DNA of 56,079 nucleotides from a virus (taxonomy: Duplodnaviria; Caudoviricetes). The translations under genes and the position numbers were made by a program. How positions within the stretch are numbered: the stretch's first letter is position 1; each line of letters begins with the position of its first letter. The stretch spans positions 1-56,079 of IMG/VR virus record IMGVR_UViG_3300044953_000549. One strand, given 5' to 3'. The notes below the pieces were generated by a model, which saw only the letters and a program-made list of their open reading frames with translations, was not told where the DNA came from and made no database searches. Shown piece by piece: positions 28,390 to 51,792 of this stretch.

Positions 28390-28394
28390 ATAAA

Positions 28395-28652
28395 ATGAAT
28401 AAAAACAGTAAAGGTAAGATAGAGATAACAGTTGATAAAACAGGTATGATACATCTAAATATTACAAATATGAGTAATACAAAAGTAGGAGCTATTATAG
28501 CAGCTACACTAGCACAATTAATACATACTGTAGGTACTAACGCTAATAAAACTCTAGGTGAAAGATTGGACTTTTTAATGAATGATATAGTACCTGATAT
28601 AAAGGATAATATACTTAAACTAGATAATGTATTTATGGATGAGCAATTATGA
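28395..28652 (+). CDS. early hypothetical protein
   Basis: ORF with AGGTAAA RBS; weak similarity to 33195..33407. Confidence 0.65.
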   Translation: MNKNSKGKIEITVDKTGMIHLNITNMSNTKVGAIIAATLAQLIHTVGTNANKTLGERLDFLMNDIVPDIKDNILKLDNVFMDEQL

Positions 28653-28954
28653 AGAACTATAGATTATATATTAGTAATAATAAAAGCTATGAGTTTGATA
28701 ATTATGAAGAATTTAAGAGATTAATTCGAATGAAGAGGTACAAACTACTTATAGATGATAAAAGTTATGATTTTAATAATTATGAGGAATTTAGGAGATT
28801 ATTCAATAAAATAACCATAAACATAAGAAAATATAAGGGTTTTGTTTTGCATTTCTATGCTGATAAAAATGAATCAAATATAGAATATAAGAGAATGTGG
28901 GAAATTCTTAATAACAATAAAAACAAAATTTTATTGTATCGGATATTAATATGA
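28649..28954 (+). CDS. hypothetical protein with duplicated N-terminus
   Basis: KNYRLYISNNKSYEFDNYEEFKRL / KRYKLLIDDKSYDFNNYEEFRRL. Confidence 0.65.
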   Translation: MKNYRLYISNNKSYEFDNYEEFKRLIRMKRYKLLIDDKSYDFNNYEEFRRLFNKITINIRKYKGFVLHFYADKNESNIEYKRMWEILNNNKNKILLYRILI

Positions 28955-29223
28955 GGTTAAAGAAAATGAAAAATAAATTATTACTAGTTAGTTGTATTTT
29001 AATTCCTTTTACAGTTCTTGCTAATACTATTAACGATATAAAGGAATTACGAGCTAAGATAAAAGAAACAGCAGAAGAAATTAGAATAGTTTGTGAAGGG
29101 TATACTAGATATCCAAATAGGGTCGGTCAAAATAATATATATTATTGTAATTATCTGGAAAAGGAAGTGAATGAGTATATTAAAAAAGTTCTAGAATTAG
29201 AAAATAATTTAAAGGAAAAATAA
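28951..29223 (+). CDS. small exported protein (signal peptide)
   Basis: MKNKLLLVSCILIPFTVLA followed by a helical domain with two Cys. Confidence 0.6.
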   Translation: MRLKKMKNKLLLVSCILIPFTVLANTINDIKELRAKIKETAEEIRIVCEGYTRYPNRVGQNNIYYCNYLEKEVNEYIKKVLELENNLKEK

Positions 29224-29224
29224 A

Positions 29225-29617
29225 ATGATAAATGACAAACACACTAATAATTCTTATGAAATACGCAGAGAAATAGAAAAATGTTATAACAATGAACAAA
29301 TTGAGAATATATTAAAAAGTTTCTCTAAGTTATGCACAAATATCAAGGAATTAACACCGAGAGATTTTGTAGAATGTGCAATACAGCTTATAAATTCGCT
29401 CCCTACTATGAATGAAGTCATAGCTTTGAAAATAGTAACTTATTTATATTCTATATTAGAGTATTTACCTGAATATGAGCTACATCATATATTAGGTATT
29501 AATAATACATATGGGGAAAGTAAATATAAATTACTTGATTTTCTAGTATATCCTTCAATTAAAAAGAAAATTAAAATGTTTATAGAGTATAGTAAATTAC
29601 AGAAGCAAGATAAATGA
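29225..29617 (+). CDS. early hypothetical protein
   Basis: 130-aa coupled ORF. Confidence 0.6.
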   Translation: MINDKHTNNSYEIRREIEKCYNNEQIENILKSFSKLCTNIKELTPRDFVECAIQLINSLPTMNEVIALKIVTYLYSILEYLPEYELHHILGINNTYGESKYKLLDFLVYPSIKKKIKMFIEYSKLQKQDK

Positions 29618-29835
29618 ATATAGTTGAAATAATGAAAATTGCTGAAAATAAAGATAAATTAAGACGTAAAGAATGGGGAGAGACAGGAAGTAGGGGAGCA
29701 TCAATATTATTTTTATATAAGAATGATGAGAAATACATTCCTATTTACTATCAAGGAGCTCAACCTTGTTTTAGATTAAGTACTTTTTTAATAAAAGAAG
29801 ATTATATAGCTGATGACTGGGAGATAGTAGAATGA
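29614..29835 (+). CDS. DUF2829/Tad2-like protein 1
   Basis: MNIVEIMK...LRRKEW...EDYIADDWEIVE. Confidence 0.7.
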   Translation: MNIVEIMKIAENKDKLRRKEWGETGSRGASILFLYKNDEKYIPIYYQGAQPCFRLSTFLIKEDYIADDWEIVE

Positions 29836-30200
29836 GTAAAGAATTAATAGATGAATTGAAAAATATTATTAGAGCTAATCCAACACTGGATTTAATAGAA
29901 GAAAGAAGAGAAAGAGAAGTTTTGTATATACTATATATAAATGATTCAACACAAACAGCAGTTACAGTAAATACAAGAAATGAATTTAATATCAAAACAT
30001 TAGAGCAAATAATAGATGACGATAAAACTAGATATGAAGCACCTACTAAAGAACAACTATGTAAATTCTATCTTGAATTTATTAAGAACAATAGCGGTCA
30101 TGATTTAGTTTTTGATATTGACGGTTCTATATACAGGAAAATAAAAAAGGTTAGTAAGGAGTTAAACTTTATAATATATGAATATTTAATAAACAGGTAA
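29832..30200 (+). CDS. early hypothetical protein
   Basis: ATGA-coupled ORF. Confidence 0.6.
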   Translation: MSKELIDELKNIIRANPTLDLIEERREREVLYILYINDSTQTAVTVNTRNEFNIKTLEQIIDDDKTRYEAPTKEQLCKFYLEFIKNNSGHDLVFDIDGSIYRKIKKVSKELNFIIYEYLINR

Positions 30201-30204
30201 TAGA

Positions 30205-30480
30205 ATGACAATAAGTAAAGAAAGAGTAGAAGAGTTAAGGTCTATATTTTTAAATAATTTACGTAAAGAATTTGAAGAAGAAATATCTTATCATATAGAC
30301 GAGCTTGGTAAAAATCCTGAAAAATTTTTTAAATCTTATTACAAAACTTTAATGAAGGATTGTATGGAAGAAAGAGGTTTAAGAAGTATTAATGGTTATA
30401 TAGGTATTGAATTTCCATTAAGATTAAATGATTTTACAGAAGAAGAAATTAAATATTTAGAAGAGGATAAAAGAAAATGA
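30205..30480 (+). CDS. early hypothetical protein
   Basis: ORF with CAGGTAA RBS. Confidence 0.6.
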   Translation: MTISKERVEELRSIFLNNLRKEFEEEISYHIDELGKNPEKFFKSYYKTLMKDCMEERGLRSINGYIGIEFPLRLNDFTEEEIKYLEEDKRK

Positions 30481-30653
30481 AAACAAAAATAAAACAAATT
30501 GAAAGAGATTTTTACGAACTAGATAATTTATGTAATTCGTGTAGTTCCCCTCTACCTGTGTTTGATATGTTAACAATTAAAATAGGTAATTCAAGATATG
30601 GTTCGCCTCTTTGTATTAATTGTCTTAATGAAAGAGGTATTAGTTATGAATAA
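30477..30653 (+). CDS. 58-aa CxxC...CxxC zinc-finger-like protein
   Basis: Manual translation: LCNSCSSPL...LCINCLNE; ATGA overlap with the upstream stop. Confidence 0.6.
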   Translation: MKTKIKQIERDFYELDNLCNSCSSPLPVFDMLTIKIGNSRYGSPLCINCLNERGISYE

Positions 30654-30834
30654 AGTAAAATTAAGAAACAAAATGCGAATAGGTGAAATAGAATTTGATG
30701 TTGTTGTACTTGATAATGGAGAAAGAGTGATAACAGAGGAAAGTTTACAAAAATTTATTGATGCAATGAAACTAGGAAACAATAAAGAAGTTAAAAAATT
30801 AATGAAGGATATTAGGATACATTATGTTGATTAA
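30646..30834 (+). CDS. small protein resembling the N-terminal part of P63C-domain proteins
   Basis: IGEIEFDVVVLDNGERVITEESL; GAGGT RBS favours a start at 30646. Confidence 0.5.
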   Translation: MNKVKLRNKMRIGEIEFDVVVLDNGERVITEESLQKFIDAMKLGNNKEVKKLMKDIRIHYVD

Positions 30835-30902
30835 ATACGCAATAATGTTATTAATTGTATTAACATTCGTAATAACAGCTACTTTTATTTTAAAATTTAT
30901 TT

Positions 30903-31145
30903 TTGATAAAAATAATTAAAACTATGGAATCACAATTTTGGACTACTAAAAATAGTAGAAAATTAAAAATCACTAATATCCGTGATGATCATTTAATAAA
31001 TATACATAAAATGCTATTGCGTAAAGACTTACATATTTACGAAATTAATTATGAAATGAGACGTAGAGGTTTTCTTCCAATTTCACCTGTAATTGAATTA
31101 TGGGAAATAGAACGTTTTCAAAATAGTTATGATGATCAATTATAA
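30903..31145 (+). CDS. small phage protein
   Basis: WTTKN...I..I.DDHLINI.KML motif. Confidence 0.6.
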   Translation: MIKIIKTMESQFWTTKNSRKLKITNIRDDHLINIHKMLLRKDLHIYEINYEMRRRGFLPISPVIELWEIERFQNSYDDQL

Positions 31146-31154
31146 AACAGGTAA

Positions 31155-31529
31155 GTGAAAATGAACATAATCGAAGCATTAAATGAAGTTAGGGATGGTA
31201 ATACAGTAACCCGCATAAACTGGTTTGATAATATTGTCGTTATGCTTTCTTCAGAAACTGGAAAAATAGTTGTACATAATACATGTACCAATGAGGACTT
31301 GGACTATCTTTTTACCGCAGACGATGTACAAGCAGATAATTGGGTAATAAAGCACTATAGACGACCATTGACTTTTGTTGACGCATTTAAAAAAGTTAAA
31401 AATGGTAAGAAAGTAAGAAGAAAAGTTTGGAATGATGATTGTTATATAACAGGTGATACTAGATTAAACAGTTTCTTCTTAGCAGAGGAAGATTTACTGG
31501 CTAATGATTGGGAGGTTATAGAAGCATGA
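31155..31529 (+). CDS. tandem two-domain DUF2829/Tad2-like protein
   Basis: MNIIEAL..V.DG..V.R.NW...DVQADNW plus LTFVDAF..VKNGKKVRRKVW...DLLANDWEV. Confidence 0.8.
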   Translation: MKMNIIEALNEVRDGNTVTRINWFDNIVVMLSSETGKIVVHNTCTNEDLDYLFTADDVQADNWVIKHYRRPLTFVDAFKKVKNGKKVRRKVWNDDCYITGDTRLNSFFLAEEDLLANDWEVIEA

Positions 31530-31753
31530 ATATAATAGAAGCAATTAATAGCTTGAAAGAAAATCCTGAATTGGCAATGAAATCAAAATATTTTACAATA
31601 ATATATGATGCTGATAAGAATGTTTTTTATCAACTTGAATATTACGAAAGAGGTGATGGGTTATTTGATGAAGAATTTTCTAGAATTGATATAGAAGAAA
31701 ATATCTTTTGTTTAAAAGATATTTTAAACAATGATTGGGAGGTGGTGGAATGA
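31526..31753 (+). CDS. DUF2829/Tad2-like protein 3
   Basis: MNIIEAINSLK...DILNNDWEVVE. Confidence 0.6.
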   Translation: MNIIEAINSLKENPELAMKSKYFTIIYDADKNVFYQLEYYERGDGLFDEEFSRIDIEENIFCLKDILNNDWEVVE

Positions 31754-31848
31754 GTGATATAGAAATTATAATGTTAATACATACAATAATTTTAATTGTT
31801 GGGATAATAGGTCTTGGACTTAGTTTTTGGTATAATATGAATAATTAG
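31750..31848 (+). CDS. 32-aa single-TM peptide
   Basis: MSDIEIIMLIHTIILIVGIIGLGLSFWYNMNN, ATGA-coupled. Confidence 0.45.
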   Translation: MSDIEIIMLIHTIILIVGIIGLGLSFWYNMNN

Positions 31849-31986
31849 CAGGACAAAATGTATACAATAAACTTTTTTAATTTAGCGGAAATAGAACGTA
31901 AACAATATAAACATCCTAGCTGTAATCTTTGCAATACATTTTACGAAGAAAAACGATTATATTTTGAATTTAAATTAACAAACCTG

Positions 31987-32130
31987 TTGATTTTCTTATG
32001 TTTTTATGTTATATTGTGGTTATCATAAAAGTTAATCTGTTGTTTTTTTCTTGGTATAAAATTACTAAGAAAAAATTTTTATAAGTATAAAAAGAACCTT
32101 GAATGACTAAGGTTCTTTTTTTTATTTCTA
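31987..32130 (+). ncRNA. predicted small RNA B (sister of A)
   Basis: TTGATT-17-TATATT (TGn extended); 48-bp identity with A; terminator at 32089-32123. Confidence 0.55.
32089..32123. terminator. intrinsic terminator, copy 2
   Basis: AAAAAGAACCTT-GAATGACT-AAGGTTCTTTTTTTT. Confidence 0.8.
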
Positions 32131-32355
32131 TTTCTTCTATAAATTACCGATAAAAATTCTTAATAAATTTCCCTTACCTAAAACCAATATTAAATTTCTT
32201 AAACCTTAATAATTTTGAAAAATTTTATGAAATTTCTATTTTTAATTTAGACATCAAAGATACAAGCAAAAATTATCATCAAAACTATCATCAAAATTAT
32301 TGAATATTTCATCATACTAAAAATATAAAATTTTACTCTGATTTTAGACACTCCC

Positions 32356-32692
32356 AAAAAAGTTGGAAGACGCTCAACACCAGTTAAATAAAGGGGTTCA
32401 ATGGATATATAAAAAACCCGTCTTTCAACAAGAAAACCAAAATTGGAAGACGCTCAACACAAGGATATATAAAGGTTTTAAGGGGAATCTTCCAATCTTC
32501 CAACTTTTTTAGAACAGTGTCTATATATATTAGAGAAAATAAAAATATCTATTTTCTTATTTTTCAATTATTATAATTATTTTTCTATATACACATACAT
32601 TAAAAAAAGTTGGAAGATTGGAAGATTATACCTTGAATACAAGTTGAATAAAGGTTTTCAGCATCTTCCAACTTTTTTACCTAGTTGGAAGA
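32356..32692. repeat. iteron array 2 (TTGGAAGA), putative replication origin
   Basis: 8 exact TTGGAAGA/TCTTCCAA copies; perfect 25-bp inverted repeat 32486-32510 / 32603-32627 around an AT-rich core. Confidence 0.7.
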
Positions 32693-32984
32693 CACACCTA
32701 TATTGAAGATGTAAAATCATTTTTACATTCTAATTTTTATAAACAAATTGTACACCACATTGATAATGAGCCTTATATAAATGAAGAAAGAATATTTGGG
32801 ATTATTATAACTTCACATAATGAAATTATTTATAAAAAGTTACTTAGAAATTGGTTTTGTGATGATAAATATTTAGCAATACATAGTAATATTGATAATA
32901 AAACCATTTATAAAACGGTTAATGATAAAGAAATTATTGAAGATTTGGTTTTAGTTTGTAATAAGGGATTGTTAGAATAATAAA

Positions 32985-33194
32985 ATGAACATTAAACAAC
33001 TTATAGAACAAAATAAAGTTCAATATGATTTAACAAATAAAGATAAAACAAAAATTTTAAATATCCGTGATGGATTATATAAAGTATTTGATGATAAAAC
33101 TAATACTTGGGTTAAATATAATTTAGATGATTTAGAAAAATTAAATTTTGAACTTTTTATACAAATTTTATTTGATGATTGGGAGGTAATATAA
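32985..33194 (+). CDS. divergent DUF2829/Tad2-like protein 4
   Basis: MNIKQLI...ILFDDWEVI. Confidence 0.45.
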   Translation: MNIKQLIEQNKVQYDLTNKDKTKILNIRDGLYKVFDDKTNTWVKYNLDDLEKLNFELFIQILFDDWEVI

Positions 33195-33407
33195 ATGAAA
33201 AGATTAGAGATACTTATAGACGAGAAAAATGATAGATTTAAGATACTTAACCACGACAATCTGAACTATTCCGATGTTACAAGATATCTTGCGGATTCTA
33301 TGGTACATATTATAAACGATAATTATATGGGTGATAAAATTCAATTTCTTGAAGATTTACTAGAACCAATGAAACAGGATTTAATAAACTTGAATAAAGA
33401 AAAATAA
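33195..33407 (+). CDS. early hypothetical protein
   Basis: GGAGGT RBS. Confidence 0.65.
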   Translation: MKRLEILIDEKNDRFKILNHDNLNYSDVTRYLADSMVHIINDNYMGDKIQFLEDLLEPMKQDLINLNKEK

Positions 33408-33410
33408 ATA

Positions 33411-33470
33411 TAATATTTTGTAGACAATTTAATATTTATTGTTGACAGATATAAAAACAACTACTAATAT
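33411..33470 (+). promoter_or_regulatory. early promoter 2 (duplicate of promoter 1)
   Basis: TTGTAGACAA box, TTGACA-17-TAATAT. Confidence 0.8.
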
Positions 33471-33509
33471 ATAAATACGAACACAAAAATAATTAAAAAG
33501 GTAAACATC

Positions 33510-33821
33510 ATGAAAATTAAAGACGACATACTACTAGAATATATTAAACCTCATATATCAGAGAAAGTATACAATTTGTTATATGATAATATTAATGAAC
33601 CAAAAGAATATAAGGTTGCTTTTAAAGAAGCAGAAAAAAAAACATCAGAAGATTACAGTATAATTTTTCATTCTCTTACGGAAAGTTTTTATTTTCTAAA
33701 AAGCAATCTGATTATCAATTTATTGAAAATGTCTAATATATTTGATTCCATAGAAGTTTCATTAATAACAGTTCAAGGTGATAAACTATTGTTTAAGTTC
33801 AATGTAAAAGATTTATATTAA
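33510..33821 (+). CDS. early hypothetical protein
   Basis: Shared GAACACAAAAA...AAGGTAAA leader. Confidence 0.65.
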   Translation: MKIKDDILLEYIKPHISEKVYNLLYDNINEPKEYKVAFKEAEKKTSEDYSIIFHSLTESFYFLKSNLIINLLKMSNIFDSIEVSLITVQGDKLLFKFNVKDLY

Positions 33822-33825
33822 AATT

Positions 33826-34308
33826 ATGAATAACAATCAGGAAGAAAAATTAAAAATACAAATAGATGATTTTATCTTAAATATGAAATTCAAGGATTTA
33901 TTGCATACATATTTTAAGGATACGCACCCATTTTTAAATAGAATAAGTATAAAAGAAATAGATTCAGGTTTTGTTTTTAATGAAGATGAAAGTTTATTGG
34001 CTAGAATGGAAACATATCAATATCATTGTTTTAATGAAGATAGTAATAAGGATTTGTTAATAATTTCAGACACAATTAAAAATATTTTTAATAATCTAGA
34101 AGAAAAAGCAAAATATATTTTTAATCCTTTGTATTCAGAAATGAATATCATCTTTATAAGAGAAGAAATAAACTATCAATGTTTTATAAATCAAATTACA
34201 AAAAGAAGATGTATTCTAGTAATGGGTAGATTTGGGTTTTACAATATATTAACAAATAATGATTGTAAAACAGTTAAAACAGAGGACGGACAAGAAGTGC
34301 CATTATAA
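33826..34308 (+). CDS. early hypothetical protein
   Basis: 160-aa ORF. Confidence 0.6.
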   Translation: MNNNQEEKLKIQIDDFILNMKFKDLLHTYFKDTHPFLNRISIKEIDSGFVFNEDESLLARMETYQYHCFNEDSNKDLLIISDTIKNIFNNLEEKAKYIFNPLYSEMNIIFIREEINYQCFINQITKRRCILVMGRFGFYNILTNNDCKTVKTEDGQEVPL

Positions 34309-34324
34309 AAATAGTGTTAATATT

Positions 34325-34717
34325 ATGCCTAAGAAAAATATAAAAATAGATGATATACATGTTCATATAGGTAACAAAATAAAAATATACCGATATGAGA
34401 TAGGGTTATCAAGAAGTGAATTAGCCCCTAAAATTAATATCAGTCAACAGCAATTAACTAAGTATGAAGCAGGAGTAAATAAAATATCTGTCGGTAGATT
34501 GCTTCTACTTGCTAATGTATTAAATAAAAATATAACAGATTTTATATATACTGATGAATGGGAAATTAATACGGAAAATCTATCACGTATTGATATGGAG
34601 ATATTATGTAATTTAAGTAGTATTAAAAATCCTGAACTAAAGGAAAATATTAATACATTAATAAAAACAACAATTAAATCATATGTTGATACAACAGAAA
34701 TTAAAAAGTTTGGATAG
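34325..34717 (+). CDS. XRE-family HTH regulator of alphaproteobacterial type
   Basis: HIGNKIK.YR...GLSRSELA..INISQQQLTKYEAGVNKISVGRL; likely start ATG 34325. Confidence 0.88.
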   Translation: MPKKNIKIDDIHVHIGNKIKIYRYEIGLSRSELAPKINISQQQLTKYEAGVNKISVGRLLLLANVLNKNITDFIYTDEWEINTENLSRIDMEILCNLSSIKNPELKENINTLIKTTIKSYVDTTEIKKFG

Positions 34718-34737
34718 TAAAGAAATAGAGGTTTTAA

Positions 34738-34965
34738 ATGAGTATAATAATTATTATTGCTATTATAACAATAGGTCAGATAGCAATAGCTATAATGATA
34801 AGCAGTAATATTGATGATTGTGATAGATATAGACGTAACGAGCAATACGGTATTAGTATTAATGTTATAGATAATATAAAAAGAAAATCCGTTATTATAA
34901 GTAAACTGAGTAAATTAATAATATTATTACTTGGTATTGTGTGGGGATTTATAATAATTAAATAA
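34738..34965 (+). CDS. small two-TM membrane protein
   Basis: Hydrophobic N- and C-termini. Confidence 0.55.
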   Translation: MSIIIIIAIITIGQIAIAIMISSNIDDCDRYRRNEQYGISINVIDNIKRKSVIISKLSKLIILLLGIVWGFIIIK

Positions 34966-35067
34966 TTATGGTAATTAAACTGATTGTAATAGCTTTATTA
35001 CTTGTTTTTATAGTTGGGATTGGAACATATATAATGAAGCTGATATTTGATAAAGAGGACTAAATAT

Positions 35068-36081
35068 ATGAAATTTACAAAAATAAAAAACTTTACAGAA
35101 ATTAATGAAGTAAGAATTAAAACATCTACTTCAAAAGGTGAGGTAACTAATAAACTTGTTATCTATATTGGTAAGGAGATAGCAGATAAATATTTTAGTG
35201 AAAGCAACTATGTAAATGTTAGAGTAGTTAAAGATAAATTAGGTAAAAATGATATTCATTTATTTAAAGCTATTGATGGTTCTGATTTAAGAAAATACAA
35301 GTTCGCTGTAACAGGTAACGGTACATGCCAGACGAGAAAACTATTAATCAGTATGCCTGTTGATGTAGATATGAACAATTATATAATTAATAAATCTGTT
35401 ATATACTCTAATATTGATAATACTCTGATACTTCATATAGATAGTAAAAGTAAAATATCTAAGAAAACCAATAAAAGTAAATTAATTGTAAACGGTATAG
35501 ATCAGGCAACCTTAGATAAGCAGTTTCAAAATAAATTCAATGAGTTGTATGATGAAGAATATAATAAATATGAAGCATTAGGACAACCTATAACTAGAGC
35601 TGTTAGAAAAGCAAGAATGGGAACTGAAAATAATATTGATTCTATAACCTCACATAAACAAAAAAGAGATAAATTAATTGAGTTGTATGGAATAAGAGAG
35701 GATCTCGATTCAAACAACCAATATCATTATGAAGAATTAAAAAAGTTAGTGTGGGAAACAATACTTCGTTTAGATTTTCTGGATAAAAAAGTTGATTTTC
35801 TTTCTCCTATTTGTAAAGCTATGGATAGGTTAGAAGATAAAATAGACGTTATTACATCTAAAAATACTACTAATGAAACTAATTCAAAAGAATTAAATAA
35901 TCTAGGTTATGATAAATTAACACAAGATTTAAGAGATCGTCAGCTTTATACAGAGAAAATACTATTTGAATTAATAGAACATAAAAATACAAATTTAAAA
36001 AGATTATGTGAAATTGAGAATAAAGTTAAAAACATTAAAGAATATAAAAGAAGTCTGTTTGATAGGATATTCGGGGATTAA
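35068..36081 (+). CDS. hypothetical protein (beta N-domain plus coiled coil)
   Basis: Long ORF; GAGGA RBS favours ATG 35068. Confidence 0.7.
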   Translation: MKFTKIKNFTEINEVRIKTSTSKGEVTNKLVIYIGKEIADKYFSESNYVNVRVVKDKLGKNDIHLFKAIDGSDLRKYKFAVTGNGTCQTRKLLISMPVDVDMNNYIINKSVIYSNIDNTLILHIDSKSKISKKTNKSKLIVNGIDQATLDKQFQNKFNELYDEEYNKYEALGQPITRAVRKARMGTENNIDSITSHKQKRDKLIELYGIREDLDSNNQYHYEELKKLVWETILRLDFLDKKVDFLSPICKAMDRLEDKIDVITSKNTTNETNSKELNNLGYDKLTQDLRDRQLYTEKILFELIEHKNTNLKRLCEIENKVKNIKEYKRSLFDRIFGD

Positions 36082-36083
36082 TT

Positions 36084-36317
36084 ATGGACAATAAAATACA
36101 TAGTATTCCATATGAAATAAAATCAATGAAGAAACTGGCGGAAAATATTGCGTATGTTAATAAAAGTAAGGGTGCTTTTGTAATTATTCTTGAGAAGGAT
36201 GATACAGTACGTATGGGTTGTAGCGGTCTTACTTTCCATGAACAGAAAGAAGTTTTAACTGTTGCAATATATAATGTCTATGATAAGGATAAACAAATTA
36301 AAATAGAGTATGAATAA
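36084..36317 (+). CDS. hypothetical protein
   Basis: Coupled ORF. Confidence 0.6.
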   Translation: MDNKIHSIPYEIKSMKKLAENIAYVNKSKGAFVIILEKDDTVRMGCSGLTFHEQKEVLTVAIYNVYDKDKQIKIEYE

Positions 36318-36639
36318 CACAATAAACGATTTATTATTTGAAATAGATTTTTGTTTAGATAGTATTTTCCCTATAGAAGAAAGAGTTACTAAAAAACAAA
36401 GTATAGAAAGAATATTATTAACAATAAGTCAATTAAGAGGACAATTATTATCTATGAGAGATGATATAGTTAGAGATAATGATATTAAAGGACGTAAAGA
36501 ATTGTACCATCCTCTTGAAGCATTACCTTTAGAATTAATGCGAAATTTATACAACGATATGCCCGATAATTTAGCTGAAAAACATTTTGATTCTACAACA
36601 TATAATAAATGTAGTAAAAGAAATAGAGGTGTTATATGA
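36310..36639 (+). CDS. hypothetical protein
   Basis: Coupled ORF. Confidence 0.6.
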   Translation: MNNTINDLLFEIDFCLDSIFPIEERVTKKQSIERILLTISQLRGQLLSMRDDIVRDNDIKGRKELYHPLEALPLELMRNLYNDMPDNLAEKHFDSTTYNKCSKRNRGVI

Positions 36640-36833
36640 CAATAACACGATCAATAGCTGTTCATATAAAGAAAGGTAGCAGTCTTTTTGATTTTATTAG
36701 TGAAGTAGAAAGCAAAACAACATTAAGTAGTAAGGAGATACTAGAGTTTCTTATAAACTGGGCGTACGAAGATTATTTTTATAATGATGTTGATCGTTTG
36801 CTGGAATTAATGGATAGTAGGAGGTTAAAATAA
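36636..36833 (+). CDS. small protein, possibly RHH-like
   Basis: RSIAVHI strand followed by two helices. Confidence 0.45.
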   Translation: MTITRSIAVHIKKGSSLFDFISEVESKTTLSSKEILEFLINWAYEDYFYNDVDRLLELMDSRRLK

Positions 36834-37408
36834 TGAAAGAATATATAGCAATTCATATAGGGAATTTAACCATTGAATTACAAAATGAGGTAGTTAAGGT
36901 TAATGATACTATAGTAGAATTATTTGTTCTTGAATATAAAATATTATCTTTACTAAGTAGAGCTGATATAAACTGCTGGATATCAATAGAAGATATAAAA
37001 GAAAAACTTGATCATGCTAATATTTCTATTTGTATATCTAATTTACAGAAGAAACTAAGTAAACATAAAAGTACGGTTAATATTATAGAATCTTTGACAG
37101 GTGAATACGTTAAGCTTGGTTCTTATGTTCTGGATTATGAATCTGCGTGTAAAATAGAAATAACTGAATTTGATAAAAGTTCTAAGGAAACACAAAAGAA
37201 AGAAGAACTTATAGATGAGTTAAGATATCAAATAAGAAGAGATATGGAAGACTTTAAACTTCTCTGTTCCCGTATACCTGATATAGACGGTGAGGAATAC
37301 AACCGAATATTTGGTGATGAAGAGTGTTATAGTTTTTTTAGAACCTATTTAATGAATAAGATAGAAGATAACATAGAAAAATTAAGAGGATTAGTAGATG
37401 TTAGATAA
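36833..37408 (+). CDS. OmpR/PhoB-type winged-helix protein lacking a receiver domain
   Basis: IGNLTIELQNEVVKVNDTIVELFVLEYKILSLL...ICISNLQKKL...IES. Confidence 0.65.
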   Translation: MKEYIAIHIGNLTIELQNEVVKVNDTIVELFVLEYKILSLLSRADINCWISIEDIKEKLDHANISICISNLQKKLSKHKSTVNIIESLTGEYVKLGSYVLDYESACKIEITEFDKSSKETQKKEELIDELRYQIRRDMEDFKLLCSRIPDIDGEEYNRIFGDEECYSFFRTYLMNKIEDNIEKLRGLVDVR

Positions 37409-37628
37409 AATTTACGATATTTTAGGTTCTATATTTCTTATATTCGCTGCACCTTTTCTTATTATTGGGTTTGTTTTTATATTTGTAAGTAAGTGTATCT
37501 TAAGATCAACATATCTTTGGTATTATATAGTTATCCCTTATATTAAATATATTGTAATTACAAACGATAAGGAATCTTGGGATAGATCGGTAAGAGAACG
37601 TATACATAATAAAAAATATTATGAATGA
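37398..37628 (+). CDS. small membrane protein
   Basis: Hydrophobic N-terminal half. Confidence 0.55.
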   Translation: MLDKIYDILGSIFLIFAAPFLIIGFVFIFVSKCILRSTYLWYYIVIPYIKYIVITNDKESWDRSVRERIHNKKYYE

Positions 37629-37950
37629 TAAAGAATTAGAAAAATTACAGAACGATTTTGCTAAATTGATTCGTAAATATAAATTACAGGATACACTTAT
37701 TATTAGTAATAAGGGGTATATAAAACCTGTAGAATATAGTGAAAATCAAATATTAGATTGTGTATTTGCTGCTTTAGAGAATATATTAACTGATATAACA
37801 ATTAGACTTACTTATAATAGTTCATATGATGATTTTAATGTTGAATATGATAGATTAATGCAAACATTAGATAATCTTCTTATTAGACTAAAACAAAGAA
37901 TTAAACATAGAATAGAGGAGGTAGAAGACAAAAATATTAAATATAATTAA
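37621..37950 (+). CDS. hypothetical protein
   Basis: Coupled ORF. Confidence 0.6.
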   Translation: MNDKELEKLQNDFAKLIRKYKLQDTLIISNKGYIKPVEYSENQILDCVFAALENILTDITIRLTYNSSYDDFNVEYDRLMQTLDNLLIRLKQRIKHRIEEVEDKNIKYN

Positions 37951-37998
37951 ACAGAACTGAACAATCGAATTTAATTAATTTTTAAAAAGGTAAATAAT

Positions 37999-38244
37999 AT
38001 GGAAAATAAAGATTATAATAATGATTTTGATATATCTGAATTTAAACATACAATAGAGAGTATACAAATTGATATACAAGACGCAAAGAATGAAATATTA
38101 AATTGTGTAAAAGATGAGATATGGGTTGTATATCAAGAAATATATAATGAAATACACGACACTAAAATATCTTTTATATGTGAACTTATTATAATTTCTT
38201 ATGGTGTCTATGGTTTGATAAAAATCTATAAATATTTTTTCTAA
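37999..38244 (+). CDS. coiled-coil protein with C-terminal TM
   Basis: GAACAATC...AAGGTAAA leader; hydrophobic tail. Confidence 0.6.
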   Translation: MENKDYNNDFDISEFKHTIESIQIDIQDAKNEILNCVKDEIWVVYQEIYNEIHDTKISFICELIIISYGVYGLIKIYKYFF

Positions 38245-38299
38245 TAAACACTAAACAATTAAAAATAATTAAAAACAATTAAATTAAAGGTAAAATAGA

Positions 38300-38917
38300 A
38301 TGAATAAGATATTTCAATCTTTGATTGATAATTGGTATATAATTACACCAATTATTATATGTATGATAACATCAATATTTTTTGAGGTTTCTATTATAAC
38401 ATTCATAATAAATATAACAAGTTTTTCAATATTTTTACTTATTCCTTATTATAAGATTATATATAAAATAATATTAAAGGAAATAAAAGATACAATACAA
38501 TGGTTAATAGATTTTTATATTTCACTTATAAGTATGCCAGGAAAAATATTTAATGTAATACAAGAATTAAGATCTGTTGAGATAACTGAAGAAGATATTA
38601 AAATAATAGGAAATGTTATATCTAAAACAATAAAAAATATATTATGGATTTTCACTAAATATTTTTTATGGATATTTTTAATATTATCAGTAACTGTCGG
38701 TATGTTTCATAGTGTACTTGGTTTTGCGTATTTGAAAATTATTGCAAGTTATATATATGGAATAATAGGTATGCCGCTATTTATAATACTAGCTGTAATA
38801 AGTGTATTATCTGGGTTTATACTTGGTATATGGTATCTATGTTTATTCGCTGCCATAATATATGGTATGATTATTGTTATTACAGCGTTAATAGTAATAT
38901 TATCTCATATATTTTAA
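38300..38917 (+). CDS. multi-pass membrane protein
   Basis: Several long hydrophobic segments; shared leader. Confidence 0.7.
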   Translation: MNKIFQSLIDNWYIITPIIICMITSIFFEVSIITFIINITSFSIFLLIPYYKIIYKIILKEIKDTIQWLIDFYISLISMPGKIFNVIQELRSVEITEEDIKIIGNVISKTIKNILWIFTKYFLWIFLILSVTVGMFHSVLGFAYLKIIASYIYGIIGMPLFIILAVISVLSGFILGIWYLCLFAAIIYGMIIVITALIVILSHIF

Positions 38918-40885: not shown

Positions 40886-42046
40886 CTATTGCACTCTTGC
40901 TCTTTTTAAACTAGGTTTAGCTCTTATGGCTAATTCTTCTTCTTCAATAGGCACATTATAATAATTTCCTGTTTCAGGATCATATAATTTAATATAACCA
41001 TTATTCAAATTACTGGAGTTATTTGTATTATTAGAATTATTTAATTTACCATCAAAACTATTACGGCTTAACATACCAGATACATCTATAGTTGGGTCTG
41101 CAAGATAGTTTGTTTGTTTTAACTTTTTTGTATAATCGTTATATCTTTGTATATTTTTTAGTGCGTTATTTCTATCTCTTTTTAAAATTTTTATAGCTGC
41201 ATTATAATCTTTATCAGAAGTAGGTGCTGTTTGCATTATAGCTTTAAATTCAAAAGTTGAGGGGTTACTGCCACCACCTTGTTTTACTCGACCTAAATAT
41301 GCTGCTTCAGCTGCTTTAATTAAATCTAATTCTTCAGTATCCCCTATATATGAAGCCCATTTTCTATTAAATCTTTTACCTAAACTTGAACCTATATATC
41401 CTTCTTCTTTTGCTTTATTAAAAACATCTTCGATATCATTTAATGTTTCCACTAGAGCAATATTTTCTAATATTTCTTTATTATCTTTTTCTAGTTTTTT
41501 TAAATTTGAATTTCTTATATCTTTATTATGTGGAGATTCTTTTGTAGAAACCGATAAATTTTTATTCTCAAGCAACCCTTGATGATACCTCTCCTGCTCC
41601 AGTAACTTCTCGTACTCAAGTCCTAGTTGTTTATCTTTAAAATAAGCATCAAAAGCATCCTTGTCTTGCTCTCTTAATCTTTTTATCTCCGAGTCTCTGA
41701 GTTTTTTAGCAACCTCAAGTACTTCCTTCATATCATGCTGTATTTTTTCTCCTTCTGCTTCATACCCTTCTAGCCCCGCTGATATAGCAGGCCCGAGAGA
41801 TGCAACCTTACCGAGAGTCCCGTCTCTTTCTCTAAATCTTGGATCGCCGTATTGTTTGTTTAAAGCATCCGAGAACATGTGAAGACCTTTACGTATTGCT
41901 CTATGTTCCTGATCAGTATTAAGTGCCAAGGATTTCTTGGAGGCTTCAATAGCTCTCATAACTCCTGCGTCAAAAGGATTCTTTGCATCTACTTCGTTTT
42001 CTATTTCCCTTCTCCTGTTATCAAGAGCATCAATGTAACGTTTCAT
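40886..42046 (-). CDS. internal virion / ejection protein (putative)
   Basis: Helical; GGSNPSTFEFKAI...P motif; adjacent to the 656-aa ejection gene. Confidence 0.55.
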   Translation of the reverse strand: MKRYIDALDNRRREIENEVDAKNPFDAGVMRAIEASKKSLALNTDQEHRAIRKGLHMFSDALNKQYGDPRFRERDGTLGKVASLGPAISAGLEGYEAEGEKIQHDMKEVLEVAKKLRDSEIKRLREQDKDAFDAYFKDKQLGLEYEKLLEQERYHQGLLENKNLSVSTKESPHNKDIRNSNLKKLEKDNKEILENIALVETLNDIEDVFNKAKEEGYIGSSLGKRFNRKWASYIGDTEELDLIKAAEAAYLGRVKQGGGSNPSTFEFKAIMQTAPTSDKDYNAAIKILKRDRNNALKNIQRYNDYTKKLKQTNYLADPTIDVSGMLSRNSFDGKLNNSNNTNNSSNLNNGYIKLYDPETGNYYNVPIEEEELAIRAKPSLKRARVQ

Positions 42047-42112
42047 AAGATAAATATTTGCTTATGTTAATAATTGATATTATAATTCATTTAATAATAA
42101 TAGTTAAGTGTT

Positions 42113-42796
42113 ATGTCGATATTCAAGGAATACAATTACCTCGCAGCTAGTAACAATAATATAACTAGTTTGACCTCTTATGCTGCTGCGGCTAATTCAA
42201 TTATAAGTTTTAATGGTATACTCGGTGATACAAAAATAGATTTTAATAATAAATATACTTTTGTTCCTAGAATAACTTTTACTTCCGGTGCTGATAGATC
42301 TAACATTACTTTTACTCTAAGAGGATATCAGAATGGTATTTATATCGAAGAACTATTAGTTGGCCCAAACGTTGCTACTGTTACAAGTGTTAATGCTTTC
42401 GATCTATTAGAAAATATTACTTATACTACAAATGGCGGTGTACCTCCTATTCCCGGATCTAACTTTGTTTCTGTTGGTACATCAGGAGTTGGATATTTTC
42501 CGTTAATAAGATTAAATACCTTAAAACAAAATGTTACAAATCTTAATTATGCTTTAAATATGATGGTAGCTGCTAATAACCCCGCTACCTATCAAGTATT
42601 CTTATCCTTAAAAGATAGTTATAATCAAGGAACATACGATAGCTTAACAACAGCAAACAATAACTTCATAGCTCCAGCAGCTGCAAGTAACGTATCAGCT
42701 TTACTTAACTACACACAACTAGCATCTAATATATTAATTAAAGTAACACCTAACAATAACGGAACAGCATTAAAAGCCCAGTTCATGCAACTATAA
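42113..42796 (+). CDS. virion structural protein (putative)
   Basis: PRITFTSGAD.SNITFT..G......EELL.GPN..TVTS motif; beta-rich. Confidence 0.55.
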   Translation: MSIFKEYNYLAASNNNITSLTSYAAAANSIISFNGILGDTKIDFNNKYTFVPRITFTSGADRSNITFTLRGYQNGIYIEELLVGPNVATVTSVNAFDLLENITYTTNGGVPPIPGSNFVSVGTSGVGYFPLIRLNTLKQNVTNLNYALNMMVAANNPATYQVFLSLKDSYNQGTYDSLTTANNNFIAPAAASNVSALLNYTQLASNILIKVTPNNNGTALKAQFMQL

Positions 42797-42811
42797 TCTA
42801 AAACCATAACA

Positions 42812-42859
42812 AAACCTCCATTATTTAGTATTAAAAAAAATATTAGATAATGGAGTTTT
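42812..42859 (+). terminator. long hairpin / terminator after 42113..42796
   Basis: CTCCATTATTTAGTATT / AATATTAGATAATGGAG followed by TTTT. Confidence 0.65.
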
Positions 42860-42863
42860 CAGA

Positions 42864-42898
42864 AATTTGTAGACAAATTAGTGTTATTTCTATATACT
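42864..42898 (+). promoter_or_regulatory. promoter of small RNA C, overlapped by the AATTTGTAGACAAATT palindrome
   Basis: TAGACA-17-TATACT. Confidence 0.65.
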
Positions 42899-42900
42899 AA

Positions 42901-43017
42901 GTTTTGCTATGTCATCAGAATAGCAAACTATGTTAACATATTTTACCGTATGTTAATTGTTTTTGATTGTTCATTAAGTAGACGCTGCTTTAAATATTTA
43001 AGGTGGCGTTTATTTTT
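42901..43017 (+). ncRNA. predicted small RNA C, antisense to early-gene leaders
   Basis: Three stem-loops; terminator stem with four G-U pairs fixes the + strand; reverse complement matches the leaders at 26029, 27734, 38255 and others. Confidence 0.7.
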
Positions 43018-43098
43018 ATGAAGATAGATAAATAATAGATTTGTCAAGTTCGGAAAAATAATTCCGAGGTTAGTTTATTTAGAATTTAATAATTAAAC

Positions 43099-43473
43099 AT
43101 GAAAATTAAAACAAATCCAAAATATACTTCTAAATACGATAAAGTTGTTAAAAAGTATACTTTTGAAGAATTACAGAATTTACTCGATAATTGTCAATCC
43201 AAAACAGCTTTATGTTTAAGACTTAAGTTAAGTTTAAAATATCTTAATATGATAATTGAATTAAATGGATTGAAATATGTTAATAAGGATAGAGGGTTGC
43301 CTCCCGGATTTGTTCATAAACCAAAGAAAATAGATAAAGAAGAAACTATTAAAGTAAGATTAACTCAGGAAATGATCTCAGAAGATACAGCACTTGAAAG
43401 ATTTTATAAAGAACTTGAAGTTAAAAAGAAGAAAAGATTGATTAAAGATGTATTAGATCCTTATGGAGATTGA
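43099..43473 (+). CDS. basic HTH-like hypothetical protein
   Basis: SKTALCLRLKLSLKYLNMIIELNGL. Confidence 0.55.
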   Translation: MKIKTNPKYTSKYDKVVKKYTFEELQNLLDNCQSKTALCLRLKLSLKYLNMIIELNGLKYVNKDRGLPPGFVHKPKKIDKEETIKVRLTQEMISEDTALERFYKELEVKKKKRLIKDVLDPYGD

Positions 43474-43838
43474 TTTAAAAAATTAACTATGATTGTATTA
43501 TTTAAATTTTTTATATTATCTTTAATTTTAGGGTTATAATATAAACCTACAACTAATATGAAAATTATGAACTTTAAATTTAATCTTTGGTTAAATATAA
43601 CAGATTTTAAAATATATAACACTAGAGAGTAAAAGTAAACAGTAATGAGTATATATCTATCATTCTATTATATCTGTTGTATTAGATGTTTTGGGTTGTA
43701 TATCATTTGGTATAAAAAGATAAACTAAAGAACCTATTGTTTGAAATAATAAATAAAGTTGATTATTTTCAATATAAGTTAATCTAATAAAGAATAAGAT
43801 AAATATAATATCTCTTATATATTTAAGATATTTTTGCA

Positions 43839-44213
43839 TTATTTGTTGAGTTTTCGTTTAATGAAATTTTCAATAATTCCTTTACCTTTATGTTTTTTAG
43901 CGTTTTCACGTAAACTATCTTCATAATCAGTAAAAGCTTTTTCATATTTTTCTGAAAGATCTAATAACGCTGATTTTGGCTTTTCTTTCTTCTTAACTTT
44001 TTTAGAATCAATATAATCTTCTATATATTTTTTCATTTGAGGACTTACACTTTTACGCTCAGTTTCTTCATCCTCATCGTCTTCAGTATCTTCTACCTCA
44101 TTTTCGTCATCTTCATCTTTTTTCTTACCAAACATTTTTCTTAAATGTTTTGGTTGATTGAAGAGTAAATCAATATCAACTTCGTTTTTATTGAAAATAG
44201 ACTTTTTCTTCAT
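43839..44213 (-). CDS. charged low-complexity protein
   Basis: Acidic run DEDDENEVEDTEDDEDEE flanked by Lys clusters. Confidence 0.6.
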   Translation of the reverse strand: MKKKSIFNKNEVDIDLLFNQPKHLRKMFGKKKDEDDENEVEDTEDDEDEETERKSVSPQMKKYIEDYIDSKKVKKKEKPKSALLDLSEKYEKAFTDYEDSLRENAKKHKGKGIIENFIKRKLNK

Positions 44214-44288
44214 GTATTTAGATGAAAATTATTAAAACTTAATGTATTATAATATCAAATATTTATTATTTCAATAGCTAATTTAACA

Positions 44289-44960
44289 ATGAATTATAAT
44301 AGTTTAATTTTAGATATCCAACATTATATGATAAGGTATGATGATCAACCGTTTATAGACAAGATACCGGATCTTATACAACAAGGGATTATCAGGATTT
44401 ATAATAAAGCAAAAGATATTGGATTTGAAATAATTACAACACATAGAAATATTATTGCTGGTACATTAAATTTACCTATGCCGGATAATTGGTTAGAAAC
44501 TATATCAGTTCAGATGATTAATATTATAACAAGAGAAGTAACATTTTTACAACCGAGATCATACGAATTTTGTAGAACATATTGGCCGTATTATCAAAAT
44601 GTAACTAGAGCAAAACCAAAATATTACGCTCATCATGGACAGAATATTAATAATTTAAGAAACGCTGATCCTTATAGTAGAGAGATATATATGTTAGTTC
44701 CAGTTCCAGATATTACTTATGATTTTGATATTATATATCATGGTATACCCTTATTTAACATTAATAACCAAACAAATTTCCTAACTCAAAGATATCCAAG
44801 CCTTCTTCTTTCTTCTTGTCTTATTGAAGCAGCATTATTTCTGGATAATCAACCTAAACTTGCGGAATATAGGAATATGTTTAATGAGGAACTAGATACA
44901 ATCAATAAAATCAATAAAGATAGAAGTGCTGATAGAACTGTAATAAGAGAAAATAATTAA
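44289..44960 (+). CDS. tail adaptor / tubular protein A-like
   Basis: MNYNSL..DI..Y; PKYYA; PVPD..Y; NFL...YPSLLL..CLIEA. Confidence 0.75.
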   Translation: MNYNSLILDIQHYMIRYDDQPFIDKIPDLIQQGIIRIYNKAKDIGFEIITTHRNIIAGTLNLPMPDNWLETISVQMINIITREVTFLQPRSYEFCRTYWPYYQNVTRAKPKYYAHHGQNINNLRNADPYSREIYMLVPVPDITYDFDIIYHGIPLFNINNQTNFLTQRYPSLLLSSCLIEAALFLDNQPKLAEYRNMFNEELDTINKINKDRSADRTVIRENN

Positions 44961-50691: not shown

Positions 50692-51792
50692 CTAGATTTC
50701 CTCTAACTCATTATCTCCGCTAAGTACAATACTCTCTAAAACTTTACTTTCATTGTTGCTTGGATATATGGATTCTAATGTATTACCTTTCTCAAGAATT
50801 TTAGTTACAAAACCTTGTTTTATTGAAGGTTCTATTTTAGATTCAATTTTAAAGGAACTATTGATATCTTCAAAACTTATCTGATTTATCTTAAATATCT
50901 CTATTTCATTAACCAGTTTTAATTTATCTGTTTTTAGATCATTTTTATCGGATTTCAATTCCTTGATATTTTCTTCCAATAATTTAATAGTATTCTCAAG
51001 ACCTCCAACTAAACTTGTTCTATTTTCAATTTCCTTATCTTTAAATAATAACGTAGATTCAAGTTTAGCGTTAATACCACTTAAATTAGATATAATATCT
51101 TTTAAACGTTTGTTCTCATCTTCTTGAATTTTTGAATTAGATGTAAGATTATTTATTGTTGAATCTCTATTTTCTATCTGTTTTTCTAAAATATCTTTTT
51201 GATTTATTATAGAATTATGTTTATCAGAAATAATTTGATCTTTTAATTTTATTTCTGTTTGAAGTAAATTAATAGAATTATCTTTTTGTATAATTATTGA
51301 TTCTTTTGACTTTATATTAGATTCAAGATTACTTATTGTTTGATCTTTAATTTTTTTATCTGATTCAAGATTGGAGATAATTAGTACCTTATCTGAAATA
51401 GTTTTATCTTTCGAGCTTATTTCTATTTGTAGAGAATTAATGTTATTATCTTTTTGTATAATAGCAGAATTTTTAATTTTAATATCAGACTCTAAATTAG
51501 ATATTACAGTAATCTTATCTGAAATATTCTTATCTTTTAATTTTATATCGTTTTCTTGTTTTGATATAACCTGATCTTTTAATTTATTATCAGATTCAAG
51601 ATTGGAAATATAACTTTTTAATGAATTGCTATCTTTTTTTAAATTTTCAATATAGGCATTAAGATTAGTTTGCTCGGATTTTAATGTTGAGATAGTATCA
51701 ATTAAACTATTATATTCAATTTCAAGCTGAGAAAGATTTTTTATGGTTGTTCTACCATCAGGCAACTTTATAGTTTGAACGGTTCTTTTCAT
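50692..51792 (-). CDS. coiled-coil repeat protein
   Basis: Repeated ISNLESDxKxKD / IIQKDN units; acidic tail ending VLSGDNELEEI. Confidence 0.75.
   Translation of the reverse strand: MKRTVQTIKLPDGRTTIKNLSQLEIEYNSLIDTISTLKSEQTNLNAYIENLKKDSNSLKSYISNLESDNKLKDQVISKQENDIKLKDKNISDKITVISNLESDIKIKNSAIIQKDNNINSLQIEISSKDKTISDKVLIISNLESDKKIKDQTISNLESNIKSKESIIIQKDNSINLLQTEIKLKDQIISDKHNSIINQKDILEKQIENRDSTINNLTSNSKIQEDENKRLKDIISNLSGINAKLESTLLFKDKEIENRTSLVGGLENTIKLLEENIKELKSDKNDLKTDKLKLVNEIEIFKINQISFEDINSSFKIESKIEPSIKQGFVTKILEKGNTLESIYPSNNESKVLESIVLSGDNELEEI

Follow-up and report, generated by a model that had tools for sequence, protein, structure and literature searches.

A candidate trans-acting small RNA antisense to the shared leaders of putative early genes in a 56,079-bp virus genome

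The DNA analysed here, which we call the window, comes from a freshwater phage and is IMG/VR virus record IMGVR_UViG_3300044953_000549 over its whole length of 56,079 bp; the record is complete, has direct terminal repeats and contains about 28% G+C. A unit at 42864-43017 had been described in a first-pass annotation, made from the sequence alone, as a trans-encoded antisense RNA that matches the leader and ribosome-binding site (RBS) of many early genes. The promoter (TAGACA-17-TATACT), the two hairpins and the linker of that description are all present where it had placed them, and they are followed by an intrinsic terminator and by a gene for a 124-amino-acid (124-aa) protein (Table 1). No conserved open reading frame (ORF) was found in the unit when the window was compared with a homologue, and no gene lies opposite 42900-43017. 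Rfam 15 families gave no match at gathering thresholds anywhere in the window, and a permissive Rfam search of 42780-43110 and of the L002 homologue returned only unrelated families far below threshold, with no C4. Just upstream, the hairpin at 42811-42859 reads as an insulating, bidirectional-looking terminator that parts the unit from the preceding gene; it contains CCUCC and GGAG(G).

Folding assigns the unit to the + strand, as had been proposed. The minimum free energy (MFE) on that strand is -35.0 kcal/mol (z = -4.77), as good a value being reached by none of 200 shuffles, compared with -16.8 kcal/mol (z = -1.90; 10/200 shuffles) on the - strand. The terminator is also there, although its stem contains five G-U pairs in the MFE structure (of seven in the whole RNA) and not the four first counted. 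In hairpin 2 the loop sequence UUUACC, at 42942-42947, has an unpaired probability of 1.0, which for the window, though less clearly for its L002-type relatives, agrees with the earlier suggestion of a seed held in a loop and directed at the RBS. The complement of the conserved 12-mer in hairpin 1 is not enriched in the window (six matches with at most two mismatches, against 3.9 expected). With a predicted promoter and a Rho-independent terminator of its own and no apparent coding content, the unit has the general make-up of a trans-encoded small RNA (sRNA).

The antisense core is complementary to the 5' leader and Shine-Dalgarno (SD) sequence of seven + strand ORFan genes, and the reverse complement of 42938-42972 reads and aligns to leaders as the first-pass annotation had quoted. 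When the core was paired with 73 gene starts using RNAduplex, the seven leaders took ranks 1-7 with energies from -31.0 to -21.3 kcal/mol (median of all starts, -12.5). The sum over the top seven, -186.3 kcal/mol, compares with -123.9 (standard deviation (sd) 8.0) for composition-matched shuffles, none of 500 being as good, so the suggested comparison with shuffled sequence falls in favour of pairing. Local alignment of the reverse-complemented core to both strands of the window returned the leaders of genes 27768, 38300, 26703 and 26061 as its four best places, with scores of 46, 37, 37 and 37; among 200 dinucleotide shuffles the first of these scores was reached once and the fourth-place score never (maximum 32). 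The alignment to the leader of gene 27768 agrees at 31 of its 35 columns, the others being two 1-nt gaps and two mismatches. Leaders took four of the top five positions in a blind scan of 11,156 windows of 50 nt, and the same seven leaders stay on top when the full sRNA is cofolded with its targets and the costs of unfolding are counted. The match to the leaders thus appears to go far beyond base composition. A short GGTAAAA core that also precedes the major capsid protein (MCP) gene had been raised as a possible confounder; the MCP leader (start 13763, - strand), which shares only GGTAAAAT, pairs at -14.1 kcal/mol, close to background, and the RNA would therefore recognise the extended leader and not the SD alone. 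The targets, at 26021-38302, are distant from the unit and complementary to it in their initiation regions beyond chance, as in trans-acting sRNAs, a result that is weaker once unfolding costs are counted; none lies opposite the unit, as a target of a cis-antisense RNA of the OOP or sar type would.

Table 1. Features of the sRNA unit, its predicted target leaders and the associated promoters. Energies are in kcal/mol; duplex, RNAduplex energy; ddG, cofold value.
Feature	Position	Strand	Details
Insulating hairpin (predicted)	42811-42859	+	A-run and U-run flanks; fold -19.1, z -6.41, 0/200 shuffles
Palindrome	42864-42879		AATTTGT-AG-ACAAATT; core TTGTAGACAA at 42867-42876, overlaps -35
Promoter, sigma-70-like	42870-42898	+	TAGACA (42870-42875), 17 nt, TATACT (42893-42898); 10/12 consensus matches
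Predicted sRNA, ~112-118 nt	42900-43017	+	covariance model and fold z -5.45
Hairpin 1	42903-42927	+	5' arm and loop GCUAUGUCAUCA, identical in L002-type relatives; absent in G3
Hairpin 2	42932-42957	+	anti-SD loop UUUACC, 42942-42947
Antisense core	42938-42972 (wider core 42930-42977)	+	reverse complement resembles early-gene leader and SD
Linker, single-stranded, U/G-rich	42958-42975	+	from unpaired-probability profile; antisense to A/C-rich upstream part of leader
Intrinsic terminator	42976-43019	+	18-bp stem 42976-43015, 5 G-U pairs, then U-rich tail
124-aa gene	43099-43473	+	follows the unit in all three lineages (synteny)
Leader of gene 27768, best target	27728-27770	+	duplex -31.0, ddG -23.5
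Leader of gene 26061, first gene behind promoter P1	26021-26063	+	duplex -28.5, ddG -22.4
Leader of gene 26703	26663-26705	+	duplex -28.6, ddG -19.8
Leader of gene 38300	38260-38302	+	duplex -27.9, ddG -19.5
Leader of gene 37999	37959-38001	+	duplex -25.8, ddG -16.9
Leader of gene 27361, weaker target	27321-27363	+	duplex -23.2, ddG -12.0 (near background)
Leader of gene 33510, first behind promoter P2, weaker target	33470-33512	+	duplex -21.3, ddG -13.9
Early promoter P1 (putative)	25968-26020	+	TTGACA-17-TAAGAT
Early promoter P2 (putative)	33418-33470	+	TTGACA-17-TAATAT

The unit recurs in three lineages: that of the window, the L002 type, which includes the 32,316-bp record G2, and that of the 19,864-bp record G3. 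A pattern made of the promoter and hairpin 1 found it in IMG/VR and in metagenome contigs, with six distinct L002-type variants, and alignment of the 124-aa protein found G3. In all three lineages it lies directly upstream of the same 124-aa gene, the lineages differing at 27-35% of the residues of the neighbouring protein. A covariance model (R1) built from five L002-type relatives only finds the window RNA at 42900-43017 with 36.6 bits and an E-value of 3.1e-06, as its sole significant match (next E = 0.087). The alignment of the window with these relatives contains 35 pairs, with 98.1% of cells paired and eight pairs changed on both sides, a number that none of 500 shuffles reaches and that compares with 0-3 in slid controls; five of the pairs with compensatory changes between window and relatives lie in the terminator stem. 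A MAFFT alignment of the same sequences misplaced hairpin 2 and was not used. The L002-type promoter has the same -10 element, TATACT, in the arrangement TTTACA-17, and that of G3 reads TTGACA-17-TATATT. The stem of hairpin 2 differs in sequence among the three lineages yet still pairs, and the window and G3 have the same loop there, UUUUACCG. The G3 unit is without hairpin 1 and carries the UUUUACCG loop on another stem (AUUCAUAA/UUAUGAAU), followed by a linker and a 20-bp terminator, and it too is biased towards the + strand (-30.6 versus -19.7 kcal/mol). Because R1 failed to detect it (best E = 0.29, elsewhere in the locus), the evidence for its homology is its synteny, the loop identical to that of the window and its architecture.

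Loci L003 and L004, reached through the adaptor gene, are without the unit; of the 35 stretches that a second DNA pattern scan returned, 32 were new, and every new one was a chance match; and four of the ten metagenome pattern matches (L008, L009, L010 and L016) arose by chance. Protein-guided scans found nothing for the 124-aa protein alone, nor for the 386-aa protein, and an alignment scan of metagenome and genome contigs with the 227-aa protein encoded upstream of the unit gave no match. Related metagenome contigs carry, among the matches listed, a 1-nt deletion at 42918 and, in X4, an insertion behind 42932. The 227-aa ORFan itself (42113-42796) is present in the window and in L002 (84% identity) and absent from G2 and G3, a distribution that marks its gene as a variable cassette; a near-identical insulating hairpin precedes the G3 unit (L077 1243-1296) although that gene is missing there. 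A non-coding motif, ATCCTATAA(A/G)GTCAGATT, is common to the regions upstream of the unit in L002 (3715-3745) and G3 (L077 1185-1205) and was not seen in the window.

Complementarity to leaders recurs in the relatives. For the G2 core, leaders lying directly 5' of an ATG fill all of the top five places among 6,404 blind windows, and for the G3 core leaders make up five of the seven best among 3,910 windows. We also defined a set of sites without reference to the sRNA (GGTAAA, 1-9 nt, ATG and an ORF of at least 40 codons), which comprised 13, 11 and 9 sites in the window, G2 and G3, respectively. Mean best-five energies on these sets were -28.2, -25.6 and -27.6 kcal/mol, as against -15.1, -13.8 and -13.5 for shuffles, and in each of the three genomes none of 300 shuffles reached the observed value. 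When every sRNA was paired with every set of leaders, the phage's own pair was the best in each row and column of the 3x3 table (off-diagonal values, -17.7 to -24.9 kcal/mol); across 33 sites the difference between own and mean cross pairing was -3.9 kcal/mol (Wilcoxon p = 0.0018), with the own sRNA the best of the three at 19 of them. These values are in line with the covariation of RNA and leaders in related phages for which the first-pass annotation had suggested looking. The changes themselves go together: GGTAAAAT leaders occur with a AUUUUACC RNA loop in the window and G3, as opposed to GGTAAAT with AUUUACC in G2, and the sRNA of each phage mirrors the upstream leader motif of its own lineage (window, GAACAA...AAAAACAATTAA; G2, ACACAA...AACTAAATTTA; G3, AACAACTAATAA and AAACAAACAACTAATAA). 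Orthologous genes keep the leader in each lineage (26061 and G2 8538; 33510, G2 15132 and G3 9233; 27768 and G3 1690). As far as their sequences tell, sRNA and leaders match lineage by lineage.

The predicted targets belong to a + strand block of about 30 small ORFs at 26061-38917, no family being found for any of those tested. This ORFan block sits behind two near-identical promoter regions, 25935-26049 and 33385-33499 (115 nt each, 78% identical), and each of these promoter-plus-leader regions heads one half of it. Among them are the first gene behind each of the two strong promoters and genes at which a chain of overlapping ORFs is entered, gene 27768 being one such entry point. A promoter-motif scan of the region was uninformative (125 matches against 130 expected). 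The two promoters have an element in common with that of the sRNA: the palindrome core TTGT-N2-ACAA occurs at only four sites in the window, all intergenic (24393-24402, 25968-25977, 33418-33427 and 42867-42876); two are at the early promoters, one is at that of the sRNA, and 24393 is the fourth. It also occurs in G2, where its two positions (8443 and 23463) cover an early promoter and the sRNA promoter between them, and at the sRNA promoter of G3 (15747), and a variant with one base changed precedes the second early promoter of G3. The palindrome is a candidate operator common to sRNA and early promoters, and this sharing suggests that the sRNA is co-regulated with its targets.

From this anatomy and strand bias, the conservation, the complementarity and the lineage-specific matching, we lean, by somewhat more than an even balance, towards the unit being an anti-leader sRNA that acts in trans and keeps the early block from being translated. 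Its own sigma-70-type promoter would drive transcription of an RNA of ~115 nt, which the strong intrinsic terminator would end. The exposed UUUACC loop of hairpin 2 would nucleate on the GGUAAA SD region of mRNAs with the A/C-rich leader, the CC(A) of the loop contacting the GG of the SD first, and pairing would spread from there to both sides, across the leader by way of the 3' arm and linker and as far as the AUG by way of the 5' arm, a course that the cofold structures display. The resulting duplex of 30-45 nt would exclude the 30S subunit and would probably tag the mRNA for cleavage; the order of nucleation and the decay of the mRNA are steps that we infer from the sequence. With five to seven leaders addressed, entry points of chains among them, one RNA could damp most of 26061-38917, and because the stops and starts within these chains overlap, repression could be carried along them by translational coupling. 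In this way early genes would be shut off post-transcriptionally, by an RNA counterpart of T4 RegA/RegB. Of the proposal that one RNA silences a dispersed regulon, a separate + strand unit antisense to dispersed ORFan leaders is supported in silico; the accompanying suggestion of a carrier state or immunity is taken up below.

Several observations weigh against this interpretation. The promoter is a consensus match, and such matches are not enriched in the AT-rich window (21 against 18.4 expected). The covariation amounts to one contrast, between the window and one tight clade, in a model-fitted alignment. The L002-type relatives bury most of UUUACC in a stem and expose only CC and UUAAAU. Once the RNAs are cofolded, the advantage over shuffles is modest: the top-five sum is -102.1 kcal/mol against -70.6 (sd 12.2), with none of 58 shuffles as good, the top-seven sum is reached by one of the 58, and the leaders of 27361 (-12.0) and 33510 (-13.9) adjoin background (-11.9). 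A profile hidden Markov model of the seven leaders matches the locus (- strand, 42970-42938) at an E-value of 0.29 only. The blind scan of the window also gave non-leader sites at about -27 to -28 kcal/mol (48561 on the + strand and 90-139 on the - strand), as did that of G3 at energies similar to those of its leaders. Taken genome by genome, own pairing differs significantly from cross pairing only in G3 (p = 0.02; window, p = 0.19; G2, p = 0.17), and the G3 sRNA is promiscuous, reaching -24.9 and -23.5 kcal/mol on the other two genomes. The block is called early by analogy, from its small ORFans behind two strong TTGACA promoters. Finally, the whole case is drawn from sequence, from which we infer both transcription and repression.

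A broader interpretation, which we hold as tentative and rather doubtful, gives the 124-aa protein a part as well. The shared leader would be a portable address tag, and the sRNA and the protein would together shut off the early genes. On each early cassette the leader of 35-40 nt would be at once the junction for swaps between phages and the landing pad of the sRNA, and a newly acquired early gene would automatically come under the same timer. The sRNA would be fired from an early-class promoter with TTGT-N2-ACAA, and read-through of its terminator would yield the 124-aa protein, putatively DNA-binding and possibly the regulator of the palindrome, which would close the early promoters. If this is true, one small module provides both post-transcriptional and transcriptional shut-off, with sRNA and leaders co-evolving as a lineage-specific pair. 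The protein has eight homologues at 67-96% identity, with no Pfam or PHROG family assigned to it. Its AlphaFold model (pLDDT 73.6) gave no match in the PDB at E <= 0.001 in a Foldseek search, the best being helix-turn-helix proteins at E > 2, and atlas leads to helix-turn-helix families scored below 0.9; a helix-turn-helix protein with a long C-terminal helix is possible from the model, as a lead only.

The constant presence of this gene close behind the unit, which the first-pass annotation had overlooked, raises an attenuator or co-transcription reading. The unit would be the 5' leader of the 124-aa gene, the promoter at 42870 serving that gene, the hairpins and terminator setting the level of read-through, and the short RNA being a by-product. 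As the explanation of the unit we regard this as unlikely, although a role as 5' leader or attenuator may well coexist with one in trans. The unit adjoins the same gene in three lineages while its opposite neighbour varies (the 227-aa gene is absent from G2 and G3), and a terminator lies in the 5' region of the gene, as an attenuator requires. The distance from terminator to ATG is 80 nt in the window, ~25 nt in L002-type relatives and ~35 nt in G3, and the shorter gaps leave little room for a separate promoter, so that the 124-aa gene probably depends on read-through. Premature-termination RNAs have moreover been reported in virulent Pseudomonas phages, in what PMC10914365 says of them. An attenuator, however, leaves unexplained why the core mirrors distant leaders in three genomes (0/300 shuffles in each). 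No conserved alternative, antiterminator pairing was found in MFE or centroid folds of six homologues, nor any Rfam cis-regulatory family at the unit; the region upstream of the 124-aa gene is without a GGTAAA leader, and a -10-like TATATT just past the terminator in L002-type relatives makes a weak promoter of the gene's own possible.

We think it quite improbable that the anti-leader RNA is an immunity or carrier-state factor in the manner of phage P1 c4 or P4 CI, made constitutively in a persistently infected cell and silencing the early genes of resident and superinfecting genomes alike. The lineage-specific matching of sRNA and leaders is how heteroimmunity groups would be expected to look, and c4 confers P1/P7 heteroimmunity by pairing around an RBS, as PMC12197685 describes it in its account of that RNA. 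Against this, a scan that covered part of the window's ORFs turned up no integrase, repressor or partition family, and the integrase-free carrier state with superinfection immunity that had been proposed in the first-pass annotation gains no support. No relative of the 227-aa protein was found in one genome each of 185,579 bacterial and archaeal species, and hence no prophage copy by that probe, and the cross-reaction of the G3 sRNA with the other two leader sets would make for poor immunity specificity.

Just as improbable to us is a non-functional relic, in which a copy of the leader became inverted beside a terminator and was kept alike by gene conversion, the leader being a repeated module boundary in cassette exchange. 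The leaders are indeed repeats (families D4 and D9), and related metagenome contigs join or skip cassettes at them (26650 to 27347; 27345 to 28047) with leader-like letters between, so that the leaders do look like module boundaries for cassette exchange. Gene conversion among repeats could in principle yield the matching of an inverted copy without selection for pairing, which is a further point against a regulatory RNA. A relic would nevertheless not be expected to lie at the same place in three lineages whose neighbouring protein is 27-35% apart, to be reshaped in each into a hairpin that presents the anti-SD on a different stem sequence, or to be framed by a conserved promoter and a terminator specific to the + strand; the inverted copy is, besides, identical to no single leader, unlike the product of a recent conversion. 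We consider it very improbable indeed that the - strand is the active one, as a decoy leader whose SD and mini-ORF (GGTAAAATATG TTA ACA TAG, that is an SD, a start, two more sense codons and a stop) titrate ribosomes or a leader-binding protein, since, even though the relatives' - strand folds beat shuffles (z = -4.9 and -4.4), G-U pairs turn into A-C mismatches, the MFE on that strand is, in all three lineages, weaker by 11-18 kcal/mol, only the + strand has the U-tail after the terminator, the mini-ORF is not conserved (no ATG in G2, 16 codons in G3) and there is no good - strand promoter.

No near relative of the window was found among deposited phages, and 42000-44300 is without a DNA match in the phage database; the only protein kin are distant, the capsid and one virion protein being 22-34% identical to those of HTVC023P-type pelagiphages and Caulobacter phages, and there is therefore no cultured model. 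[quoted passage not shown] In the fusion, a single ORF at 1039-5061 (-) joins PriCT-2/VapE-type primase-helicase, 3'-5' exonuclease and family A DNA polymerase domains. The large terminase (20460-22511, -) may contain an intein, with a weak match to an intein-splicing domain at residues 197-313 (29.0 bits; Pfam cut-off 35.8). A patatin-like phospholipase (9917-10981, -; E = 2e-26) lies amid the structural genes, a GroES-like co-chaperonin (PHROG 3188) is encoded at 17525-17923 (-), and diverged tandem repeats of 78-117 nt, 63-74% identical, occupy 51122-51610 (-) inside the 366-aa ORF 50692-51792, which has no family match. Two ORF-poor stretches, 24204-25505 and 31753-33195, have in common an inverted 90-nt repeat (24541-24630 and 32002-32091, 78%), and each carries the same 13-bp terminator hairpin (24514-24545 and 32089-32120); they might hold an origin or further RNAs.

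We know of almost no functions assigned to sRNAs in virulent phages. In the passages of PMC4933390 and PMC10914365 that concern them, virulent-phage sRNAs are described without targets. The PAK_P3 sRNA is not a precedent for an RNA acting at many RBSs: the relevant part of PMC4933390 gives it two 11-nt phage matches and a tRNA-loop motif only. The non-coding RNAs of virulent Pseudomonas phages are derived from 5' untranslated regions by premature termination, conserved within a genus and of unknown function, as far as the account in PMC10914365 goes. Like the unit described here, they consist of a promoter, a short structured RNA and a terminator, followed by a gene, but in that account none is reported to mirror the shared leader of other genes. 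In the full-text literature, subscription journals and supplementary files falling outside that scope, we found no phage sRNA described as mirroring a shared early leader. If the anti-leader sRNA proposed here is real, it is an RNA-based timer that is simple and open to test, and three lineages supply natural compensatory variants of it; it would account for the common leader that ORFan early cassettes retain, and it would provide an orthogonal leader/anti-leader pair for synthetic translation control.

RNAs that block initiation at several mRNAs are familiar from bacteria: the anti-SD hairpin loops of Staphylococcus aureus RNAIII and RsaE nucleate on several mRNAs in this way. They do so through short C-rich seeds on unrelated mRNAs, whereas in the window a repeated leader is predicted to be paired over 30-45 nt, by a regulator that resembles an inverted copy of its target. 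Among phages, P4 CI acts by transcription termination within its own operon, and lambda OOP and P22 sar are cis-antisense RNAs. The window RNA would resemble all three in being a small phage antisense regulator of early or immunity functions, although, unlike the situation for OOP and sar, no target overlaps its locus. The sar RNA is among the phage antisense RNAs named in PMC12197685, so far as that source's treatment of them extends.

The early shut-off of lytic phages is known mainly from proteins, such as T4 RegA and RegB, and from promoter switching. The RNA c4, of ~77 nt, is processed from a transcript that also carries its one target (icd/ant), and its role is in lysogenic immunity. The c4 RNA is presented in the relevant section of PMC12197685 as a structured phage RNA whose loop sequences pair around the RBS, blocking translation. 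The predicted RNA would be like the c4 of P1/P7 (immI) in being a structured phage RNA with loop pairing at the RBS and lineage specificity. It differs in that it has a promoter and terminator of its own and that its five to seven predicted targets lie 4.6-17 kb away, in two operons; the window ORFs scanned gave no lysogeny genes, and the Rfam C4 family is unmatched. In T4, following the portion of PMC3014915 devoted to these proteins, RegB cuts GGAG in early SD sequences and RegA binds A+U-rich sites at many starts, and regB is itself an early gene, by whose product early mRNAs are inactivated at the SD. The window RNA would likewise be an early phage factor that strikes many early mRNAs at their initiation regions, but the agent here is predicted to be an RNA, not a protein, and to read a long shared leader by base pairing. 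Thus, the c4 of P1/P7 is its nearest counterpart in mechanism, without the window RNA being a member of that family, and T4 RegA/RegB is the nearest in role.

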